DNA from: Candidatus Chlorohelix sp.
GTDB taxonomy: Bacteria > Chloroflexota > Chloroflexia > Chloroheliales > Chloroheliaceae
NCBI RefSeq assembly: GCF_037138995.1
Contig: NZ_JBAXHI010000063.1
Span: forward strand, 1-13,064
Direction: 5' to 3'
DNA length: 13,064 nt
Shown here: positions 995 through 12,882 of the stretch, piece after piece
Numbering within the stretch: position 1 is the stretch's first letter
Layout: each line of letters opens with the position of its first letter
Position numbers and translations under genes: made by a program
Notes under the pieces: generated by a model
What the model was told of the DNA's origin: nothing
Seen by the model: the letters and a program-made list of their open reading frames with translations, nothing else
The model's database searches: none

Positions 995-1822
995 TCAACC
1001 TTCATCTTCCTCAGTCGGGATAGTGGTGTCGTTGTCAATAACATTATCATTCGTAGTAGCAACTAGATTATCAGAGTCAGAAGTATCAGTAACGTGATTA
1101 ACTCCAGCTATAATCCAGCCTACACCCTTATTGGGAAAGTGATCCAACTGATTCTGCACTTGGCTGCCCACACTGGCATTGACCGAAGCGTCTAAGGGTC
1201 CTAAGTTCTCTAAATCATCAGTTCCCCCGAACTGTCTATCTATCTTATGGTCAAGTTGCTGATTTTTTTCTAGGGTTTCGTTTGTTTCTTTTTCGTACAA
1301 GGCTCTTAAATTGTTGTTACGTGGCAATTGCTCATTTATAGTCAGATTTTGACCATTTTCTATACTTTCATTATAGTAACCCACCTTTTTTTGAGCTTCG
1401 GCTTTTTGATAGTCCGTCCATGCCTGTTTGTCCTTTACGTTCAAAACAAAAGCGGCAAAGCTCTCTTCATTTTTTCTTAGGTTAGCTTTTTCTTTTTCTT
1501 CCTCTGTTGGTTCATCCATACTGAACACTACTTCGTCTCTATCGGCATCAGTTATTATGGTAGGGTTTGCTTTGTCCTGCTCTTCGGCTTGCCAAATTTG
1601 AAAGTTTGCCCGGATTTTATCCGGGTCTTCAAAAGTATTATTAATATTGTCCAAAATACGTTTCTGAAAAGCGGGATGAACACCTGCTTCTTCTAGGGAG
1701 GCAATAAATTTTTGCTTTAGTTGTGTACCTGTATTAGCATCTCCAGGGATTTGCAACTTTTCTTCTTCACTGAAGCAAGAATCATCTTTATCCTCATCCG
1801 ACTGTTCATAACGTTTCTTCAT
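995..1822 (-). CDS. Highly acidic hypothetical protein (~275 aa, D/E/N/Q-rich, no recognisable domain); last gene of the operon.
   Basis: Long ORF. The preferred start is the internal ATG at 1822 (MKKRYEQ…), which sits 3 nt after the TAA stop of the upstream gene (1825-1827) with GAGGA 5 nt upstream. The track's longer start at 1897 would overlap the upstream gene by 73 nt. Composition is strongly acidic. Function unknown. Confidence 0.6.
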   Translation of the reverse strand: MKKRYEQSDEDKDDSCFSEEEKLQIPGDANTGTQLKQKFIASLEEAGVHPAFQKRILDNINNTFEDPDKIRANFQIWQAEEQDKANPTIITDADRDEVVFSMDEPTEEEKEKANLRKNEESFAAFVLNVKDKQAWTDYQKAEAQKKVGYYNESIENGQNLTINEQLPRNNNLRALYEKETNETLEKNQQLDHKIDRQFGGTDDLENLGPLDASVNASVGSQVQNQLDHFPNKGVGWIIAGVNHVTDTSDSDNLVATTNDNVIDNDTTIPTEEDEG

Positions 1823-1824
1823 TT

Positions 1825-4800
1825 TTATCCTCTGAGTATGGCTGCTATTAACATAAATATACCAAGTACCAGATCCAGTGGTAGGGTAATACACCAAAGC
1901 AAAAGTATCCCTATACCCAAGAAAAACGAAGCCAGGATTGAACGTGGTATAACTTCAAATGCGATTGGTACTGTCATAGGTGGCTGTCCACTGAGTTGTA
2001 TCTGTATCGGAATAATCTGATGACCAGGCGGGCGCAGTGATCTTACATACCCGCTAGTGATAAAAACTCTTTCCCAGATAGTGGTTTGTAGTGAAAAAGA
2101 ATAATTTAAAGTTTGACCACCAAAAGAGGCAGTTGGAGCTAAGATGGTGCTAAAAGAAAAGCCTTCCTGCCCAGGATTTTGTACCGTAACAGTGGTGTAA
2201 CCACCCTGCCCATTACCGTCGCGGCCCATATTTAAAAGTGTTAAAGTTCCGGTGATTATATCGCCTGTGCGTATTGTTGACTGATAATTCAACTTTGCCT
2301 GAATAGACGAAGTTGGTAAATTCGTGTCGCAGTTGCGCAGAAATATCTCTACCACTTCATTTTGATAAAGCTTATTCATATGGGCATCACTACCAATATA
2401 CTGATTCTGCTGCAAGGATTTTGAGGACATTATAGCTTGCTGTTTCAGACGTTCGTTGCGTAATCCGTACTCAAACCATCGAGCAAGTTCACCAGAGGAA
2501 AGATGATGGGGAATCTCGTTCCAATGGCAACGATCTACCGCTGCGATAAAATCTCCCAGTGTCGAGGCTTGTTCGGGTGGGGCAGTAAACTCAAATGGCG
2601 CTCTGGCTTTGATGTTGTATTGCTGTGGTAAACTGGCGACCTCCGGCAGTGGTGTGGCAGGTGGCGGAGTGCTGGTAGGTAATTGCTTATTATAATCGGC
2701 ACGTAGCGCAGGATCCAGCAAAATTCTTTCGGCTTCCTGTAAATACGCCAGCTTACGATTTGCATCATCCTGATCCTCTGGAAAGGGGGAGGTTTGTTGC
2801 TCTTGAAGCTGTTGGCGGGTATGTGCAATGCGTTGGCGAATGAAGTGTTCGCTGGCATCACGTTCTGCCTCGATAAGTTCATAGTAGTTACAAGCCGGAT
2901 TAGATGTAGCTGAGAGTGGCTGCGCTATTGCTTCTGGTGGTGTTTCTACACCAACTATAGAGGCGCGGATAGAGTCTCCATTCTTTCTGATTTTATCTTG
3001 CAGCTCTGTGCGAACATTCGCCAAATTTTTGCTACAATATTCTTCTATCATCTTTTGCGCTTCTTGTGTTTCAGGATCTATATAACTAAAATTGGTTATT
3101 GACCTCCATTCGTCAGGGGGGTTGTTTTTATATAACTTATCCCTAAGCTTATTGGAAGCTGCCAACCCGATTCCCTTGATTATTCCCAATGTTAAATAGC
3201 AAACTATGACCGCCACTAACGAGAAAGCACCTGGAGAATAAGTATAATAAGAATAATGGGGGTGTACAGCTGTATTAAGAGATGCGGTTGCTACCCCAAC
3301 CACTATCATAGGAAACAAAAAGCCTAGCCATGTTGGAATTGCCAGAGTAGCCATGTTTCCTATGCTGAAAAGCGTATATGCAAGCAATCCAAAGAGTAAA
3401 CTACCGGGTATTTCGAGCCATTTATAATTTACCATGTCAAAAATCGCAGCGCTTACACCAACAATGACTGCTAAGACCATGCCTATTACCAAGTTAGCCC
3501 AGCCAAAAGTTAATCCCCAGCGTTTTATGGCGTAGTTAGGGCTATATTTTTCCGGTACTATTTGAACCGAAATTGAAAAGGGATAATTACCAGAAGGTGT
3601 TTCCAACAAAAGTTTGAAATCATTGTAGCGGCTGTTATAGCTCAACTTTGAGCTATCTATTTCAATCATCAAAACAGTATCGCCCTCAATAGCAATACTA
3701 TCCAAACCTCGTACCGAACCGTCTGCATAGCCTAAACGAACTGGACGTTGCGTATTGGTACTCCGAAGAGTACCGTAGAAATAACCACGTCCCTGCCGAG
3801 CAATTTTCAGCAAGCGGTAAAATGGTTGGCGTGTGCGATCTAATGGGCCTAAATTCAGCGCTCCAGTCGGTTGAAACTCTCCTTCTAATCCCATAGCCAA
3901 TAATGGTTGGGGATGAGGTAACATTGGATTAAGCACATGAATAACTTGCTCCAATAATATCCGGCTACTGGAACGGGAATTTCGAATGAGGTCAGCCACG
4001 TTGCGGGCTATGATTCCATCTACCTGTTGCAGCCACTCTACTAGGATACTACCTCCTGGGCTTCGCAAGAGATAAACGGCTTCTTGTGCAGTGCTATCTG
4101 CCAAAACCGAAATTTCTTGAGCGGATGAAGCATAGCGACCTGATCCTAGAACTAGAAGAGGCTTACAATTGAGAGTACGGAGTGGTGCATGCTCCATTAC
4201 TAGCCACCAATAAAAACGGTGAAGGGTAAAACTCCAGTCATTATTGCACTGCCCGACGATTTCTAGGAAACGCTTGCGTGCTATTGCATCTGCTACCCCA
4301 TAACGTAGCCACCCATCCATGTTACCATTACTGCACGCCTGTAAAGCATCTTCCCAACTTTCGGGAGCCATTTGCACCAAATCTACTAGGTCAGCGGCAC
4401 TGTGTATGCCAAGTTGCAAATTACCTATACTGGCTTTAGCCAACGTTTGATTGTATTGTTCGCGTTGTTTAGGGTCTAACAGTTTTGGCAACAACTGATC
4501 CAAAAAACGAATCTTTTCCCTAGCACGTTGCGCAGTCAGGGCATCCACACTTTCGGCAGTTTGGTTTAGAGTTGCGTAAATGCGGCTGTAAGCAGTTTTT
4601 ATTTCTTCTGCACTGGCAGAAGGATTCACACTTAGAATCTCGTAGTAATTACGGGCATGCTCCATCTGGTCGAGTAGCTTGCGCCCGTCTATGTGCTGGA
4701 AGTTATCACCATAACGATGCACGGCTTGCCCGACCCCGGTTTCATGTAAACCGCCTAAGCCGGACTGGTTAAGACCGCCCAAATAACCTTGCCCATTGGA

Positions 4801-4833
4801 AGGTTCCTCAGGTAGCGGATAGGTTGTATTCAT
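1825..4833 (-). CDS. Large polytopic membrane protein (1002 aa) with two J-domain-like modules lacking HPD, a central ~4-helix TM bundle and a C-terminal TM hairpin.
   Basis: J-like module 1 is aa ~60-131 (nt ~4441-4656): NYYEILSVNPSASAEEIKTAYSRIYATL…AREKIRFLDQLLPKLLDPKQREQYNQTL. J-like module 2 is aa ~648-718 (nt ~2680-2892): NYYELIEAERDASEHFIRQRIAHT…ANRKLAYLQEAERILLDPALRADYNKQL. Both follow the J-domain helix I-II and helix III patterns (YYEILGV…EIKKAY… / …AYEVLSDP.KRA.YD), but neither has HPD. Hydrophobic segments lie at aa ~438-558 (nt ~3160-3522) and aa ~966-1000 (nt ~1833-1936). A P/T-rich linker is at aa ~719-735. SD GGAGAGGAAG ~10 nt upstream of the ATG. Confidence 0.8.
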   Translation of the reverse strand: MNTTYPLPEEPSNGQGYLGGLNQSGLGGLHETGVGQAVHRYGDNFQHIDGRKLLDQMEHARNYYEILSVNPSASAEEIKTAYSRIYATLNQTAESVDALTAQRAREKIRFLDQLLPKLLDPKQREQYNQTLAKASIGNLQLGIHSAADLVDLVQMAPESWEDALQACSNGNMDGWLRYGVADAIARKRFLEIVGQCNNDWSFTLHRFYWWLVMEHAPLRTLNCKPLLVLGSGRYASSAQEISVLADSTAQEAVYLLRSPGGSILVEWLQQVDGIIARNVADLIRNSRSSSRILLEQVIHVLNPMLPHPQPLLAMGLEGEFQPTGALNLGPLDRTRQPFYRLLKIARQGRGYFYGTLRSTNTQRPVRLGYADGSVRGLDSIAIEGDTVLMIEIDSSKLSYNSRYNDFKLLLETPSGNYPFSISVQIVPEKYSPNYAIKRWGLTFGWANLVIGMVLAVIVGVSAAIFDMVNYKWLEIPGSLLFGLLAYTLFSIGNMATLAIPTWLGFLFPMIVVGVATASLNTAVHPHYSYYTYSPGAFSLVAVIVCYLTLGIIKGIGLAASNKLRDKLYKNNPPDEWRSITNFSYIDPETQEAQKMIEEYCSKNLANVRTELQDKIRKNGDSIRASIVGVETPPEAIAQPLSATSNPACNYYELIEAERDASEHFIRQRIAHTRQQLQEQQTSPFPEDQDDANRKLAYLQEAERILLDPALRADYNKQLPTSTPPPATPLPEVASLPQQYNIKARAPFEFTAPPEQASTLGDFIAAVDRCHWNEIPHHLSSGELARWFEYGLRNERLKQQAIMSSKSLQQNQYIGSDAHMNKLYQNEVVEIFLRNCDTNLPTSSIQAKLNYQSTIRTGDIITGTLTLLNMGRDGNGQGGYTTVTVQNPGQEGFSFSTILAPTASFGGQTLNYSFSLQTTIWERVFITSGYVRSLRPPGHQIIPIQIQLSGQPPMTVPIAFEVIPRSILASFFLGIGILLLWCITLPLDLVLGIFMLIAAILRG

Positions 4834-4861: not shown

Positions 4862-5173
4862 CTATGAATCCCAGCCCATTTGTTTTCTGATATGCTGGTG
4901 ATACGCTTCCAAAGAACCATACTCCTTGTTTATACGGCGCGTATTTTCCTCTATCGCGTCTAATTCTTTATTCCAGGCTGAACCCCAGCCCTCATCAAAG
5001 CGGGGTATAGGGTGTTCTGATGGGTCGAAGCCAGAGTCGTCCCAATCTCCCTTCGGTGACACACCATAATCGTTCGAGGGTTCAGGATCCGTTTCCAACT
5101 TCTCGTCTTCTGTTATTTCCTGCTCTAACGGTTGGTCTGAAATCTGGTCGTCTTGATCTTCCTGCAAATCCAT
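4862..5173 (-). CDS. Small, highly acidic hypothetical protein (103 aa).
   Basis: ORF with a strong SD (AAGGAGAG, plus 5178-5185) 4 nt upstream of the ATG. It sits 18 nt after the upstream ATPase gene and 28 nt before the next gene. Strongly D/E-rich. No recognisable domain. Confidence 0.6.
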   Translation of the reverse strand: MDLQEDQDDQISDQPLEQEITEDEKLETDPEPSNDYGVSPKGDWDDSGFDPSEHPIPRFDEGWGSAWNKELDAIEENTRRINKEYGSLEAYHQHIRKQMGWDS

Positions 5174-5191: not shown

Positions 5192-8100
5192 TTATTTGGG
5201 AGCTGAAGACTCTTTCTGAGTACTAAATTCCACCATCAAGATTTCGAAAGCACGCGCGTGATAGTCTGACAATAACGTTTTTACTTTTAAAGCATCTTGC
5301 GGGTTGTCTTCCAAGTAAAGCGCACCCATATAAGCTTGAGCGCAATAGCTACTATTCAATTGGAGCATACTAGATGGTTCGGTCAAGTTATAACCCATCT
5401 GTGCAGTTACTCGTTTGATAGCTTTCCCATACTCAGGCCAAACTGAGCTAGGCAAACCGTCCGGTTGGGTGCTTTTAACAGCTTTTGCAAAAGCGATCAT
5501 AAACTCCTGACGGGCAAATTTTGGCAAAGATTTGATCAAAGCCTGAAAAAGACAGTGTCTGGAAGCATTCCAAACGGAACAATGCGTGCAGGTTGGATAA
5601 GGCGCAACCCCCGATTTACCGGGTGTGGTTTTGGGTTGGGGTGCTGCTGGAACAAAAGGTAGGTAACTGCCAAAACTGTGGTCGGGTAGCTTCGTGGCTG
5701 TCAAGCTACGAATACCTGAGTCATCAATAATTGCCAATTTGTTCAAATCATCTATAAGATTGGGCACACCTAGATGAACCGGTCCGAAGGCGCTACCCAC
5801 CAGCAAATGTCCGGTTTGAAGGTTACGAGCATAATCAGTTTGACGTTCATCCAGATTGAGCAACTGACTGTACAATTGGAAACTGTCGGGGTCCTCCAAC
5901 CGATGCATCAATTTCAAATTGCTATTGCCAATAGCTCCTTGAATAAGATTTACCGGCATCTGTTCGGCTATGATAATGCCTTCGCCAAAGCCCCGTACTT
6001 CTGCCAATAGGTTACTGAAGTCTTCACCCGCTGCTCCTTGGGGACTAGCATGGTCCTGGTTAGCCTGGTTATGCCGAGCCATTACCCGGTGCGCTTCTTC
6101 AACTAACGTTACATGCAACTGTTCAGGACGATGGTGTTCAATATACTCGCTGACCAGAACTAGCAGCATACCCATAATCAAGGCTGTATCCTGAGGGGAA
6201 CCAACCCGTCCTATTTCCATTATCACCGGACGTTTCATCATATCTCCGATCTCTATCGAAGACCGTTCCACATTAACCACGCTCCCGGCAGTAGCTATCA
6301 GATCGCGTATGCGAATTTCCGTGGCTTGCTCAATACTGCTCTGGGTTTCTTTGCCGTATTGAAGAGAAGCAGTTTCATTTTGTAAAGCAGCGTAAAACTC
6401 CGTAAAGTTCGGGGCAGGTGGGCTGTCCGGACCTCCCTTGCCTGTTTCAATATTCCAGCCCTTGTTCTCGTAACACTTGCGTAGCGCTGCCCGGTAAATG
6501 GCAGGAAGTGGGTCCCACATTGTAAAAGCGGCATTAAAGCAGCGCATCAGACGACTAATATGCTGTTTCAATAAGACCTTGTCTCCTACTGCAAAGGGAT
6601 TGAAGCGGAATGGTGCAGTAGTTTCATCTCCCAAGGTAAAAACCAATAGATCGAGACAAATAGGTCGACGTTGCACCTCATTCCCAAAATAAAATGCAAA
6701 CTGCTCATTACTCAAGCCATCCAGATTAGCTAGGCTGCGGTAATCCGGTTTGTCAATTGGATAAATCACCAAGAAGGGAATACGATATTTAAGCCAGAGT
6801 TGGGATAGCAGATAAAGACAGGTATTGGTTTTGCCGCTGCCGGTTGTGCCAGAAATCAGAGTGTGGCGAGCAAACTGACTCCAGGGCAGTCCAAAATCTT
6901 CGCCTGTGGACTGACCACGGTGAATAATGTTGCCCAATTTTACACTGTTTTCAATGAGAGAAGACCCCTCTTGCTTTGTCTGTTCATAGCGTGGGGCTAC
7001 AAACGGCTCATCTTTCACTACTACACCAGCCATAAACCCGCTGGCAGGTGGAACAGGTAGCCGAAAAGCGCCGCAGGCTTCTGTGGCAGTAACAATGTAG
7101 CGCAACCGCTCCAGACCAGGCGCTGAAAGGGTAGCCCCCCAAGGGTACTGTTCAAGATAGCGCAAGTTATTGAGTGCAATAGCATGATCGTTGGTTTTTA
7201 CCGGGTCGAACAACTGCCACTGGGTGGGGTAGTCATTTACAGTATTGTTCATACACTCGGAACCGAGTGCTTCCGCTACCGCAGCAGGTGCGCTTTTTTC
7301 ACCGGCAATTTGGATTTTCAGCAAGAAAGTATGGTTTTGTTCTTTTACTAGTTGCGTGTAAACCCAACGTCCTACCCTAGAGCGAAAGACCAGATAAGCG
7401 TTATCGGTGGTAGCTCTTATTCTGTCTTCTCGCTCTAGCACCCTTGTCATGTCATCAAAACGCTGGGCTGCGCCGTTGAGATAAAGGATTTCATCGGCGT
7501 AGAGTGAGGTAGGACGCAAACAAATACTTACCACAGTTCGCTCTTTTTGAGTCGCAAGAGCTTCAAAAAATCGGCTCATCGCACTGAAATCCAGCGATGG
7601 AACCAAAGGATGAACAATGTAATCACCCACCTCCTCCCGCCGTCCTAACCCCATAGCGCTGGTGCGAATCGGTAAGTCCTCAAACTTGCGAATTTCCAAC
7701 AATGTTCCTGGCTCTTTGAGGGCTGCGTACCAGTTAGCGTCCCCAAAAATTTCAAGAAAAGAAGCTTTGTCTGTCAGGGGTTTGAGAGGATAATTAAAAG
7801 GATCCTCAAGAGGGAAATTAGCAGAAAATTTAGCCCACAAGCGCAAAGAGACATCTCTAGCAGTCTTATAATCCGGGTCAAAAACTTTACAAACAAAGGC
7901 TATCCGTATTTTCCCCAGTTTGCCGGGAATAGTACTCGGTTGTTGGATAAAACGTAACTCGTAAGTAGCTTGTTTCTCGCGAAAGGTGGAAATATCATAG
8001 ATGAAACGAATTTGCCGTTTTACAACTTTTCCAATTCTGGAGTCGGCAAAGTCGTTACCACGAAAGCTAGGAATAAAAGGAACTTCGGCTGCCCAAAAAA

Positions 8101-8206
8101 TATGCCAGCCATCAAAGGGTTGGTGTTGTACTCCTTTTTTATCGGCATAACCTGTTTCTATATAGGCAGCTTGTTTTACTTCGTATAGGTAAGGTGTGCT
8201 GAGCAT
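5192..8206 (-). CDS. HerA/FtsK-superfamily P-loop ATPase (1004 aa) with a ~450-aa N-terminal domain of unknown function and a C-terminal Cys/His cluster.
   Basis: Walker A TLISGTTGSGKTNT at aa 450-462 (nt 6827-6850 encode SGTTGSGK). Walker B HVTLVEEAHRV at aa 698-708 is the hhhhEEAH form typical of HerA/DUF87-type ATPases. A sensor-like IIIAEQMPVNL…NSNLKLMHRL follows. A single P-loop domain spans aa ~430-830. No N-terminal TM segments. C-terminal CTHC-x7-HC at aa 873-885 could bind zinc. Confidence 0.8.
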   Translation of the reverse strand: MLSTPYLYEVKQAAYIETGYADKKGVQHQPFDGWHIFWAAEVPFIPSFRGNDFADSRIGKVVKRQIRFIYDISTFREKQATYELRFIQQPSTIPGKLGKIRIAFVCKVFDPDYKTARDVSLRLWAKFSANFPLEDPFNYPLKPLTDKASFLEIFGDANWYAALKEPGTLLEIRKFEDLPIRTSAMGLGRREEVGDYIVHPLVPSLDFSAMSRFFEALATQKERTVVSICLRPTSLYADEILYLNGAAQRFDDMTRVLEREDRIRATTDNAYLVFRSRVGRWVYTQLVKEQNHTFLLKIQIAGEKSAPAAVAEALGSECMNNTVNDYPTQWQLFDPVKTNDHAIALNNLRYLEQYPWGATLSAPGLERLRYIVTATEACGAFRLPVPPASGFMAGVVVKDEPFVAPRYEQTKQEGSSLIENSVKLGNIIHRGQSTGEDFGLPWSQFARHTLISGTTGSGKTNTCLYLLSQLWLKYRIPFLVIYPIDKPDYRSLANLDGLSNEQFAFYFGNEVQRRPICLDLLVFTLGDETTAPFRFNPFAVGDKVLLKQHISRLMRCFNAAFTMWDPLPAIYRAALRKCYENKGWNIETGKGGPDSPPAPNFTEFYAALQNETASLQYGKETQSSIEQATEIRIRDLIATAGSVVNVERSSIEIGDMMKRPVIMEIGRVGSPQDTALIMGMLLVLVSEYIEHHRPEQLHVTLVEEAHRVMARHNQANQDHASPQGAAGEDFSNLLAEVRGFGEGIIIAEQMPVNLIQGAIGNSNLKLMHRLEDPDSFQLYSQLLNLDERQTDYARNLQTGHLLVGSAFGPVHLGVPNLIDDLNKLAIIDDSGIRSLTATKLPDHSFGSYLPFVPAAPQPKTTPGKSGVAPYPTCTHCSVWNASRHCLFQALIKSLPKFARQEFMIAFAKAVKSTQPDGLPSSVWPEYGKAIKRVTAQMGYNLTEPSSMLQLNSSYCAQAYMGALYLEDNPQDALKVKTLLSDYHARAFEILMVEFSTQKESSAPK

Positions 8207-8255: not shown

Positions 8256-9626
8256 TCAAGACAGGCGTGCCTCTAGATATTCGATTACTTCCCGTATTTC
8301 ACTTTCAATTGTCCACTCTTCCGGGTCTAGCAAGGTACACTCGATATTTGCCGACTGATTTTGTCCCTCTACCAGCACTTTTTGTAGAATAGGTGGAACT
8401 GCCGGGTAATCGGAGCCACATAACAAGCATACATAAGCTTGTCGCCCAGAAGAACGTAATTTGAAGTTTACTTCCACCAACCTTTTACCGGTGAGCATGC
8501 CGTTTGGACTGCGTTCCGGGGCATCGTTCGCATCAAGCACATAACTTAATTTTTTCAGCCGGGTTATTGCTTGCACAAAAGAAATACCCTCAGATTTTTC
8601 AGTCGGTGTACTGTTGAAAGCATTTGCACTGAAAGGCACTTGACCAGAGTCCTGTTGGTTTGTCTCAGCGCCAGTAGGCTGGCTAAAACCTCCAGGCGAC
8701 TGGGCATACCCGGTACCCTGTGCCGGTTCAGTTGGCAGATAGTGATTTGGCGCGGGTTGGAAAGCGTTAGGGGCATATTGGTTAGGCATAAAACGGTTTA
8801 CTGGAGCATTAAGATAATCCATACCGCCTCCGCCCATTTGCTGAATAATCTGGGGAGCAATTGCTTGGACATTTTGTTGACCATAGATAAGACTACCGTA
8901 AGTTATTGGAGCGTCGTAGGTAAGATCAATATGCTCACGAGTACCGGCAGCTTGCTCGGTAGCGGTACTAATGGTATTGGGTTGCTTGATCTCAGCTATA
9001 GTAATGTGTTCAACCAGTAAGCCAATGGAATATAAACGAGAGTCTTCGGTCAATGTGCTACGAATGAGGTGGTCTACGTCCACACGGCTAAATAACAGGT
9101 CATGATAATCACAGCGCCCAAAAGCTCGGCGGGTAGCCTGAGTAACACAATCCCGCAACGTTTTAGGAGCCGAAAAAGGGTTACTGCGGATGAAGCGATC
9201 TACCCCAGAATCGCCCCGTACACTCAGCACTTTGTTATCTACCCGAAAATTAACATTAAGGGTTATGGATAACTCGATAGGTTTACCGGAACGTGGCTCT
9301 TGACCATAATGGTTGGTTCTGCCAGTAAATTCATTGTGTACCGCATTAAATTTATCAGCAATCTGAATGCTTTCCTGCCGAGTATTCACAAGGACGAAGC
9401 GAATCTTGGAGTGAAAACCTGGTTTGGCTACACGATGACAGCCTGGCGGTAGAATAGCCCACAATTGATGATTTACATAAACCACCCCTGCCGTATTAGG
9501 TTCGATTTCAACCCCAGCGTTATTAAACAACCAAGACCAAAACCCAACTTCGTTAGTCTCGTCCCGTAAAATTAATACCGGTTCGGAGTTGTATGAGGGT
9601 GAAGGAATATTAGGATAGTTGCTCAT
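8256..9626 (-). CDS. Fusion protein (456 aa): N-terminal SPFH/band-7 (stomatin/prohibitin-like) domain, low-complexity G/Q/P/N/A-rich linker, C-terminal UBC/RWD-like (E2-fold) domain.
   Basis: SPFH-like, aa ~35-216 (nt ~8979-9524): VEIEPNTAGVVYVNHQLWAILPPGCHRVAKPGFH…IELSITLNVNFRVDNKV…TLRDCVTQATRRAFGRCDYHDLLFSRVDVDHLIRSTLTEDSRLYSIGLLVEHITIAEIKQP. This aligns with the HflK/stomatin pattern V.EGE.GVV.RFGK…L.PGLH…V.VD.VV.YRV.DP…TLR.V.G….ELL..R..I…L…WGI.V..V.I.DI.PP. Linker aa ~255-345. E2-fold, aa ~346-456 (nt ~8259-8591): FVQAITRLKKLSYVLDANDA…GRQAYVCLLCGSDYPAVPPILQKVLVEGQNQSANIECTLLDPEEW. Compare UBC …GG.F.L.I.FPEDYPFKPPKV.F.T.I.HPNI…G.ICLDIL…W. The HPN triad is degenerate (QNQ). A Cys is present in the ECTLL position. 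Strong SD AAGGAGA (plus 9636-9642). Confidence 0.75.
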   Translation of the reverse strand: MSNYPNIPSPSYNSEPVLILRDETNEVGFWSWLFNNAGVEIEPNTAGVVYVNHQLWAILPPGCHRVAKPGFHSKIRFVLVNTRQESIQIADKFNAVHNEFTGRTNHYGQEPRSGKPIELSITLNVNFRVDNKVLSVRGDSGVDRFIRSNPFSAPKTLRDCVTQATRRAFGRCDYHDLLFSRVDVDHLIRSTLTEDSRLYSIGLLVEHITIAEIKQPNTISTATEQAAGTREHIDLTYDAPITYGSLIYGQQNVQAIAPQIIQQMGGGGMDYLNAPVNRFMPNQYAPNAFQPAPNHYLPTEPAQGTGYAQSPGGFSQPTGAETNQQDSGQVPFSANAFNSTPTEKSEGISFVQAITRLKKLSYVLDANDAPERSPNGMLTGKRLVEVNFKLRSSGRQAYVCLLCGSDYPAVPPILQKVLVEGQNQSANIECTLLDPEEWTIESEIREVIEYLEARLS

Positions 9627-9657: not shown

Positions 9658-11211
9658 TTAAACACGCAATCGAATTTCACCTTGTACACTGCGCTCATAT
9701 TTAGGCGCTTCCGCTACTGCTTCCAACAACCCATCAGCCCGACAGCGAATAAAGACATTGACCTCGGTCTGGGCTGGTAAATTAGGTAAATCGAACTGAA
9801 GCTCCCCTATAGTAATACACTGGGACAGTTCCGGTGTGTCACCTTGTACCAGAGAAATAACTGCCCCACCAGGGGTATTAGTGTGGTATTGGCGACTAGA
9901 CCAGTTTTGCATGGGCAGTGGGGTGCCCCTTGATAAAATTATGCTGTTAAAGTCCGGCCCATTCGGTCTGGAGGCTACTACCCCGATTGAATAAGGCAAA
10001 ATATCACTCACCTCTAGTCCGCCCAATTCATTACGTACAGCCTCACTTACTCCACCGAGGCGACCTTGGCGACCCTGACTATCCTGTTTGCTTTCTTCTT
10101 CAACTTTGATTTTGCCTGCCATCAATGCGGCACCATGCGCCACTGCTTTATCCGGATTTAGAGCGCTGTTAACTTTCTCTTTGCCAAACTTTCCGCATAG
10201 TCGTTCCCTTACTAAGGGAATACGGCTACTTCCTCCTACCAATAAAACTAGGTCGATTTGCGAAGTCGAAAGTTGCGCCTTTCCGATAGCTTGATCCATC
10301 TTTGTTTCTGCTCGAATAAGCGCCCCCTCAATCAGGCTGTTAAAAGTATCTCGGTTGAGATTTATCTGGTAAGATCTTCCCAACAAATTCAGTCGTAGCG
10401 TTGTTTCATGCCGATTGTGACCGCTCAGCTCTACTTTAGCCTGCTCTGCCCGGCGGCGCAGCTCAAAAAATTCCTGAGGGCCAAAACTGCGACGATCTAC
10501 CTGATGTTGAGAAGCCAGTTGTTGGGCGATATAGCCGATAATAGCTTCATCAAAATCTTTCCCCCCCAGTCGGTTATCGCCATCAGTTGCGAGTACCCGT
10601 ACTCTCCACCCACCGCTTGTTCCGGGTTCCATTCTTAAAATAGTCGCATCGAAAGTGCCTCCTCCTAGGTCATAAACTGCTACATTTTGAGCTACAGGCT
10701 TACGTCGCGCGGTATAATCCAGCGCGGCAGCCGTTGGTTCCGAAACCAACATTATAGAGTTGAACCCAGCTTTTTCCCCTGCTTTACGTGTACGCTCTTT
10801 CCCGCATGCGGTCATATTGGCGGGTACTGTAATAACCACCTGCTCTACAGGTTCATTTACTTCAAACTCTGCTGCTATTTTCAAACCTTTAAGGATTTCG
10901 GCGCTAATGTCTTCCGGTCTATATTGCTGATTGCGAAACTGTCGGACATATTGATCATTTTGATCACCTATCCTGCGTTTTATAAATTCTTCTACTCCTT
11001 TGGGATTAAAAAAACCAAGCTCAACAGCTTCCTGTCCAACCAGAATACGATTTTGGGCTTCATCGAAAAAAACCACGCTTGGCGTTGTATCCTGTCCATT
11101 GACAGATATAATCTCAGGCTTGCCCAGATCGTCTAGGCGTGCGATAGCTGAGAAAGTTGTGCCTAAATCAATACCTACGATCAAAGTTCTACCTCCTAAG
11201 ATTAAGTTCAT
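9658..11211 (-). CDS. Hsp70-family ATPase (517 aa): full actin-like nucleotide-binding domain plus beta-sandwich substrate-binding domain, with the helical lid essentially absent.
   Basis: Hsp70 signatures are present: IVGIDLGTTFSAIA (phosphate-1), VYDLGGGTFDATIL (phosphate-2), LVGGSSRIPLVRERL (adenosine), LVSEPTAAALDY. The C-terminal aa ~400-510 (VSDILPYSIGVVASRPNGPDFNSIILSRGTPLP…AVISLVQGDTPELSQCITIGELQFDLPNLPAQTEVNVFIRCRADGLLEAVAEA) aligns with DnaK SBD-beta (DV.PLSLGIE…IPTK…V.I.V.QGER…N..LG.F.L.GI.PAPRG.PQIEVTFDID.DGIL.V.A). The protein ends ~10 aa after this, so there is no SBD-alpha lid. Confidence 0.88.
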   Translation of the reverse strand: MNLILGGRTLIVGIDLGTTFSAIARLDDLGKPEIISVNGQDTTPSVVFFDEAQNRILVGQEAVELGFFNPKGVEEFIKRRIGDQNDQYVRQFRNQQYRPEDISAEILKGLKIAAEFEVNEPVEQVVITVPANMTACGKERTRKAGEKAGFNSIMLVSEPTAAALDYTARRKPVAQNVAVYDLGGGTFDATILRMEPGTSGGWRVRVLATDGDNRLGGKDFDEAIIGYIAQQLASQHQVDRRSFGPQEFFELRRRAEQAKVELSGHNRHETTLRLNLLGRSYQINLNRDTFNSLIEGALIRAETKMDQAIGKAQLSTSQIDLVLLVGGSSRIPLVRERLCGKFGKEKVNSALNPDKAVAHGAALMAGKIKVEEESKQDSQGRQGRLGGVSEAVRNELGGLEVSDILPYSIGVVASRPNGPDFNSIILSRGTPLPMQNWSSRQYHTNTPGGAVISLVQGDTPELSQCITIGELQFDLPNLPAQTEVNVFIRCRADGLLEAVAEAPKYERSVQGEIRLRV

Positions 11212-11574: not shown

Positions 11575-12882
11575 TCAAACCATTTGGATAAGTTGCTCCC
11601 AAAATGGGGTTATATCACGATTTATCAAATCCTGAGCTTTTGGTAAACACGCTGGGTTCAAGGTAATTTCTGAGATAGAATTCTGCCCAGTAAAAACCTT
11701 TAGAATCTGAGCTTGCGCTAATATCCCCACTATTTTTTCAAAATCGGCGTTACGAACCTTCTCCTGTAAAATCCCTACTGATATTGTTTTACTACCTACC
11801 AAACCATAACCTAGCAGGTAAATTAGAAATTTACGGATGAATTCCGCTTTTGGATGAAGAGTAACGGGTACAACCAGCGGGTTTTCTGTTAGAATAATCT
11901 CCTCTACTACTTTTTTTGTTTCTTCGCTTTCTTCTGCAAGAACTACTTCAGTTTCTGAGGATGAGTCATTTATTAAAGTGGTATACACCACGATGTTAAT
12001 AACTGGTTTTAAGCAAGTAACCTGTGTTATGGAACAAGTTAGAGTAACCCCCTCTGTAGTAGCAGTAGAGCTAAACCGATTTGCCAGAACCTCTTGCACA
12101 ACATTTGCTACCTCACGTGACCCTGTGTATTCTCCTACCAATTCAATGATGCTCAGGTTATTCCAAATTGAGGGGCGCAAGTCAGAAATAGACCAGTATT
12201 CCTGACCAATAAGACTAAAAATCCCGTCATACACTAGGTTTCTCAGGTTTTCTAGAAAGTTCTTTACAACAGGTATAATGTCCTGAAGTTCATCTGGAAC
12301 CGGGAGCAAAAAAGCATAGCCTGTTGGATTTTCGGTAGGAGCAATCACTAACTCAAGATGCACTTCATCATTTGTTATCAAATCTTGTTGTTGGGCAAGT
12401 ATCTCCATATAAGACTGTAACTGAGCTCCACGGTTCTCTTGTGCCACTAGCAAGATAGAGTGATAAGATGCAGGTAGAGATTGTAATATTGTGTCACGGT
12501 TCTGTGCAAACTGTTGGTAATCATGTAATTTCCTCTCAAGTTCCGGGTCTAAATGCAACAGTTGCTGTCTCTCCGTTTCCAGAATTGACTTCCTAAGAAA
12601 TCGTTGACCAGTGACAATAAGATTATCAAGGCAGTCCTGCATAGCTAATTTTAATTTTTCCTGCTCTTCCTGGTTAAGAGTTACGGTTTGTATAGCAAGT
12701 TCCTGCTGCAAACGAACTATATGTGCTTCTTTTATCCTCATGTCACGCTGTAATATTTCAAACTGTGCAACCAAAGAACTCATTTTTGACTGCTCTGTTT
12801 GCAGTTCAATTTCGAGCGATTCCATACGTTCGTGCGCATTATTTCTCAGTAAAGTAAGATTTTCACGTAAAGAGTTAGACAT
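11575..12882 (-). CDS. Coiled-coil protein (435 aa): N-terminal ~130 aa Q/E/L-rich predicted coiled coil, C-terminal domain unrecognised.
   Basis: Long ORF. The ATG abuts the TAG stop of the upstream partial ORF (TAGATG junction). Heptad-like L/I/Q/E periodicity in aa 1-130 (nt ~12493-12882). No catalytic motifs recognised. Confidence 0.7.
   Translation of the reverse strand: MSNSLRENLTLLRNNAHERMESLEIELQTEQSKMSSLVAQFEILQRDMRIKEAHIVRLQQELAIQTVTLNQEEQEKLKLAMQDCLDNLIVTGQRFLRKSILETERQQLLHLDPELERKLHDYQQFAQNRDTILQSLPASYHSILLVAQENRGAQLQSYMEILAQQQDLITNDEVHLELVIAPTENPTGYAFLLPVPDELQDIIPVVKNFLENLRNLVYDGIFSLIGQEYWSISDLRPSIWNNLSIIELVGEYTGSREVANVVQEVLANRFSSTATTEGVTLTCSITQVTCLKPVINIVVYTTLINDSSSETEVVLAEESEETKKVVEEIILTENPLVVPVTLHPKAEFIRKFLIYLLGYGLVGSKTISVGILQEKVRNADFEKIVGILAQAQILKVFTGQNSISEITLNPACLPKAQDLINRDITPFWEQLIQMV

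Follow-up and report, generated by a model that had tools for sequence, protein, structure and literature searches.

The locus of Candidatus Chlorohelix sp. analyzed here, a window of 13,064 nucleotides, raises the question of which kind of motor it encodes and on which substrate that motor would act. The gene concerned (5192..8206, minus strand, like every feature given below) encodes a protein of 1004 aa, hereafter the ATPase, which was assessed through its uninterrupted ORF, its full-length homologs, an AlphaFold2 model (pLDDT 87, pTM 0.78), and fold searches. It is 100% identical over its full length to a recorded hypothetical/ATP-binding protein of Candidatus Chlorohelix sp., and gaps of 18-49 nt separate it from closely packed adjoining genes on a single strand. 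Searches returned 441 homolog clusters at E <= 1e-3; the best 120 of these, nearly all 900-1040 aa in length (two are shorter), share 39-47% identity at a query coverage of 78-100%, and a family of this size and coverage is, judged from sequence comparison, far beyond chance. Full-length homologs number in the hundreds, belong to Chloroflexota in nearly all cases, and form a family vertically structured inside a single phylum; 448 clusters (50% identity) match the profile of the N-terminal domain. A pattern scan of 185,579 species representatives, which undercounts, recovered ~30 full-length loci. It is well supported that the ATPase is a real gene and that its product, as predicted from conserved motifs, is a catalytically intact motor of the FtsK-HerA superfamily.

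The RecA-type core (residues 419-830; 5717..6952) harbors both motifs named in the initial annotation, namely the Walker A GTTGSGKT (residues 453-460; 6827..6850), aligned with the GSGKS of SsoHerA and containing the invariant K459, and the EEAH-type Walker B, VTLVEEAHR (residues 699-707; 6086..6112), in which E703, E704, H706, and R707 are invariant. Four predicted helices (546-644) lie in the core between the strands at 521-524 and 661-664. Further downstream, Q749 and P751 are invariant in 'AEQMP', which we take to be the counterpart of HerA 'SQRP'. In SsoHerA, the Walker A lysine is K154, the Walker B residue is E356, and R381 acts as the arginine finger in trans (PMC4351679). By motif correspondence, E704 may be equated with E356, a residue outside the 4d2i alignments. 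R738 (5993..5995), invariant in 118 sequences, aligns with R381 and is the candidate trans-acting arginine finger, so that a candidate for the HerA-type finger proposed earlier as a check is found here. A second arginine, R447 of the 'FARH' ahead of the P-loop, is nearly invariant; it had been considered for this role and was dropped for R738 on the basis of PMC4351679. The Walker A lysine, acidic Walker B, and trans arginine finger that mark the FtsK-HerA superfamily are thus all present, every top fold match falls within this superfamily, and the ATPase is presumably ring-forming.

The initial annotation had gone further and placed the protein in the HerA/DUF87 branch, an assignment that stands at the sequence-profile level and gives way by fold. 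In the search of PDB sequences with the family profile, DUF87/HerA chains came out on top (8yho, DUF87, 7.5e-13; SsoHerA, 4d2i, 8e-7) and no VirB4 chain was found. A precomputed PF01935 match is present in most homologs, and Pfam DUF87 scored 23.1 bits on the ATPase itself against a cut-off of 23.2, in a match confined to the P-loop region. The VirB4 families of Pfam (CagE_TrbE_VirB, AAA_10, TraC) gave no match at E <= 0.01, and in NCBIfam the only related matches were TraD and TrbC, both around the P-loop and at E about 1e-3. Because DUF87 matches VirB4-like proteins as well, it may not discriminate HerA from VirB4.

In the fold searches, VirB4 was the best match for both domains. The long N-terminal extension pointed out earlier is real and conserved, comprising an alpha/beta domain (residues 1-400; 7007..8206) with the VirB4/TrwK N-terminal fold; EccE3 and EccE5 of type VII secretion came next, through similarity to the EccE cytosolic domain. 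The beta-barrel HAS domain, N-terminal in HerA, was absent in the fold search, with the VirB4-type docking domain in its place. For the core, the two nearest structures include DptH, followed by HerA and TrwB, so that HerA structures are not the closest structural relatives. The model thus predicts the domain order of VirB4, an N-terminal domain followed by a C-terminal ATPase domain, and it is well supported that a VirB4/DptH-like RecA core follows a VirB4-type docking domain and that the protein, as modeled, is built like VirB4 and unlike classical HerA. A best hit to VirB4 or a similar clade with a known secretion-system context had been named beforehand as the outcome that would speak against HerA; the first half is what the fold searches returned, whereas a known secretion context is lacking.

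The likeness to these relatives has clear limits. Identity with VirB4, TrwK, and TraC is only ~8-16%, with no VirB4-specific Pfam match, no type IV secretion genes nearby, an extra C-terminal Cys4 domain, and other partners, namely SPFH-RWD with Hsp70/J or E1/E2/JAB. DptH is a much larger protein, and its deposited structure covers the 373-residue C-terminal domain only, so that the comparison is confined to the ATPase core; none of the genes dndFG and dndA-E is linked to the ATPase. Structure entries describe HerA as a DNA translocase, TrwB as a conjugative coupling protein, and DptH belongs to a restriction system that depends on DNA phosphorothioation. The fold by itself does not discriminate between substrates. 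Features in common with HerA are the 'EEAH' Walker B, the position of the arginine finger, and the 'FARH' before the P-loop.

The VirB4-like architecture (5192..8206) is completed by a C-terminal helical domain (residues 869-1004; 5195..5602), which is well supported as an addition specific to this family. The CTHC-x7-HC string previously read as a zinc site is present (residues 873-885), but the conserved site is a Cys4 formed by C873 (106/120 homologs), C876 (104/120), C885 (108/120), and the distal C955 (113/120), while conservation does not extend to the histidines: H875 is replaced in most homologs by F or Y, and H884 is variable. The flanking sequence retains only 11-23% identity across homologs, and profile searches of PDB sequences and Pfam gave no meaningful match. 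Given its conserved cysteines, this domain is a probable metal binder (Zn or Fe-S), and it may serve in DNA binding or as an Fe-S module.

The partners of the ATPase bear more directly on its role. As noted initially, none of the usual HerA effectors accompanies it: nuclease, Sir2, and DUF4297 genes were found neither in the window nor in the wider 21-kb contig, nor in the Pfam-annotated neighborhoods of related loci, most other loci of the ~30 having been checked for partners by tblastn with a chosen query set only. The SPFH and membrane J-like neighbors are present as described, and their association recurs across the family. The SPFH/Band_7 protein (456 aa; 8256..9626; Band_7 E 2.2e-7) is soluble and ends in an RWD/E2-like region bearing 'YPAVPP'. 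It accompanies the ATPase in ~23/30 related loci, and in almost all of those whose flanks are long enough; at one locus (L009), the SPFH gene is absent within 10 kb. Pfam RWD was matched by 17 of the 21 C-termini of SPFH partners (best E 8e-5), with no individual match for that of the window, and the C-terminal profile retrieved, among PDB matches listed, only E2, UEV, RWD, or FANCL chains. The sequences stop ~40 residues past the YP motif and, by inspection, no HPN-Cys motif lies downstream of it; they thus present the UBC-like signature (YPxxxP) without a downstream catalytic cysteine, and a non-catalytic E2-like nature of the domain, as predicted from these features, is well supported. The transmembrane scan predicted no helix in the SPFH protein, so the membrane-scaffold role first suggested for it is not supported, and the membrane proteins of the system are the J-like proteins only.

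It is these J-like proteins that link the system to the membrane. The one in the window (1002 aa; 1825..4833; DnaJ E 3.4e-7) has five predicted transmembrane helices and two J-like domains (residues ~62-131 and ~649-720), both matching the N-termini of J-DZR membrane proteins from related loci. At the HPD position, their loops read 'ATLNQTAES' and 'QQLQEQQTS'; the HPD tripeptide of canonical Hsp70/DnaJ pairs is absent from both, and classical stimulation of Hsp70 is therefore doubtful. The J-DZR relatives have 'HH(N/D)P' in most cases and 'HPD' in one, as determined by inspection because the automatic alignment was offset at this column and unreliable for them. An Hsp70 paralog not mentioned in the initial annotation (517 aa; 9658..11211; PF00012 E 8.6e-84, profile positions 1-484/599) retains the nucleotide-binding domain and part of the substrate-binding domain but lacks the final ~115 positions of the HSP70 model in Pfam, and DnaK models scored ~277 bits on it against cut-offs of 648 and above. 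The string of genes opens with a 435-aa protein (11575..12882) with no family match and no homolog detected across related loci. Directly after the ATPase gene lies a strongly acidic protein of 103 aa (pI 4.1; 4862..5173), and the string ends with another acidic protein (~275-300 aa, pI 4.5; 995..1897), also with no family match. The latter gave a marginal PADLOC match to PtuA (E 0.0016), which together with weak mad8/HerA models on the ATPase makes up all PADLOC matches in the window; beyond the operon, the neighboring genes encode a PAS histidine kinase and KaiB, and none is a defense gene. A Menshen-like or other known Hsp70-containing defense system was considered and rejected because PADLOC returned nothing for the Hsp70, SPFH, and J-like proteins.

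Comparison with the related loci supports well the view that the ATPase is the hallmark of an undescribed system of several genes, centered on Chloroflexota, whose near-constant core is the ATPase with the soluble SPFH-RWD protein. Three types were distinguished, which fall into separate ATPase clades in a quick neighbor-joining tree without support values. Type A, to which the window belongs, combines the Hsp70 paralog, recurring upstream, with membrane-anchored J-like proteins that are always nearby, usually carry double zinc ribbons, and often occur as many paralogs (6-8 J-DZR paralogs in L011 and L012; three near-identical tandem genes in L005). Many type A loci add a gene for an HExxH metallopeptidase-like protein with an acidic tail. 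Across the related loci, the slot after the ATPase is often filled by a protein whose N-terminus is acidic and which frequently has a terminal HEGRH metallopeptidase-like domain. In type B, a CBASS Cap2/Cap3-type E2-JAB-E1 module immediately precedes, on the upstream side, the genes for SPFH-RWD and the ATPase (PADLOC CBASS models: E2 3e-22, JAB 2e-20, E1 4e-34). Type B thereby resembles type II CBASS, whereas E1, E2, JAB, and cyclase genes are all absent from the window; no Pfam-annotated cyclase was seen in the two annotated type B loci, and inspection of ORF termini in type B loci revealed no Ubl with a C-terminal Gly-Gly. Type C has duplicated SPFH-RWD genes, and J-DZR membrane proteins are missing from types B and C. 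The recognizable accessory domains (Hsp70, J-like, GrpE, E1/E2/JAB, RWD, YukD-RING, HExxH peptidase-like) all handle proteins. IS or integrase genes lie in or beside several loci, and one locus (L003) is adjoined by BREX, McrBC, and a PD-(D/E)xK nuclease gene.

On these observations, we tentatively favor, as a possible reading, that the ATPase is the VirB4-like motor of an undescribed protein-handling and probably conflict-related system, threading polypeptide rather than DNA. The motor would dock by its N-terminal domain on the cytosolic portions of the J-like proteins anchored in the membrane, comparably to VirB4 on the tails of VirB3 and VirB8, and would assemble with an SPFH-RWD oligomer. 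Driven by ATP, it might then pull membrane-protein or acidic-tail clients, controlled or captured by Hsp70 or, in type B, by Ubl-type conjugation. A conflict role would be preferred over housekeeping in view of the sporadic distribution, the paralog expansion, and the exchange of modules with one known from antiphage regulation. Further hints of conflict are the BREX, McrBC, and nuclease genes beside L003, the IS or integrase genes, the weak mad8/HerA matches, the CARF-adenosine deaminase gene next to a distant homolog, and the CoCoNuT precedent described below. VirB4 counts as the hallmark ATPase of type IV secretion, and here a sizeable family keeps both of its domains, never beside secretion genes, which shows that the scaffold has been re-used for another task.

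The foremost alternative, though an unlikely one, is a DNA-directed defense motor such as HerA-Sir2, HerA-DUF4297, or DptH (DndFGH), in which the ring would load on and translocate along foreign DNA, the Cys4 site (Zn or [4Fe-4S]) would contact it, and SPFH-RWD, Hsp70/J, and E1/E2/JAB would be regulators or downstream effectors. Across the ~30 loci, however, there is no consistent linkage to a nuclease, Sir2, methylase, or other DNA-acting gene, the HAS-barrel is replaced by the VirB4-type docking domain, and the recurrent accessory domains all act on proteins.

Rather doubtful, in turn, is a bolder version of polypeptide threading, in which the ATPase and SPFH-RWD would form a prokaryotic counterpart of p97/Cdc48-type 'segregases' on a VirB4 scaffold and extract clients from the membrane or from assemblies, for example phage structures. 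The E2-like RWD/UEV-type adaptor would recruit the ring motor to clients marked by Cap2/Cap3-type Ubl conjugation (type B) or held by the Hsp70/J-like module (type A). If true, this would constitute a new class of conflict system re-using a secretion-type ATPase for protein extraction, and a non-AAA+ solution to ubiquitin-like-directed unfolding.

The fold matches to VirB4 in both domains and to EccE3/EccE5 in the N-terminal one could also be read as those of a minimal, unrecognized export or secretion apparatus, a type IV/VII analog energized by the ATPase, with the J-like/DZR membrane proteins as channel base and the acidic proteins or HEGRH metallopeptidase as cargo. The constant membrane partners of type A and the small acidic or acidic-tailed peptidase-like proteins often encoded just downstream would fit. 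We nevertheless consider this improbable: VirB3/6/8/10, pilin, coupling protein, and relaxase genes were recognized neither in the window and 21-kb contig nor in Pfam-annotated related loci, and EccB/C/D and WXG100 neither in the window nor among Pfam-annotated neighbors; types B and C do without J-DZR proteins, most of which have by inspection apparently only one to a few C-terminal hydrophobic segments and are thus unlikely to build a channel.

A similarly small chance is given to housekeeping quality control or remodeling of membrane proteins in filamentous Chloroflexota, analogous to HflK/C-FtsH or Erlin/p97 and with no conflict role. An SPFH assembly would here organize the ring ATPase, and damaged membrane proteins would be extracted, captured by Hsp70, and degraded by the metalloprotease. 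An SPFH protein, a ring ATPase, Hsp70/J, and an HExxH peptidase-like protein do together resemble a proteostasis toolkit, the family has a vertical structure inside its one phylum, and an SPFH-domain protein is genetically paired with a ring-type ATPase as in HflK/C-FtsH. Unlike there, the SPFH partner has no membrane anchor and carries an RWD, and the motor is of the RecA/FtsK type, not an AAA+ protease; moreover, a Cap2/Cap3-type module takes the place of the Hsp70 module in type B, and paralog expansions and IS insertions occur. Occurrence is also patchy (~30 full-length loci among the species representatives), which is weak evidence given the undercounting scan. Finally, a canonical HerA for DNA-end resection with NurA/Mre11/Rad50 encoded elsewhere, suggested by weak sequence similarity to SsoHerA, is effectively refuted by the missing HAS-barrel, a length ~2x that of HerA, another conserved partner set in every locus, and the closer structural relationship to VirB4 and DptH.

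A full-text literature search found no description of a system of ATPase and SPFH-RWD; other Hsp70-, Ubl-, or FtsK-linked systems have been reported (Kaur et al. 2020; Iyer et al. 2006). The only architectural precedent found is the EccE3-like domain fused to a VirB4-like ATPase in type III-A CoCoNuT defense operons (Bell et al. 2024, PMC11090510), a likeness by architecture alone: that ATPase lies between vWA genes, beside McrBC-like CoCoNuT genes and in other phyla, and no association with SPFH-RWD, Hsp70/J, or E1/E2/JAB is reported for it. Two traits of the present system are unusual, namely the strict linkage of the ATPase to an SPFH protein that bears an E2-like domain and the clean swap of Hsp70/J for a CBASS-type E1/E2/JAB module, which jointly offer a natural experiment on the roles of regulatory modules. 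Under the protein-threading reading favored above, the ATPase becomes a concrete candidate, open to testing, for a ring motor outside the AAA+ class that works under the direction of Ubl or chaperones, and the system may reveal a new mechanism of defense or proteostasis in filamentous Chloroflexota. The neighbors of distant homologs in Verrucomicrobiota, Lentisphaerota, and a Priestia plasmid had no Pfam match and gave no functional lead. One distant homolog adjoins a CARF-adenosine deaminase gene.

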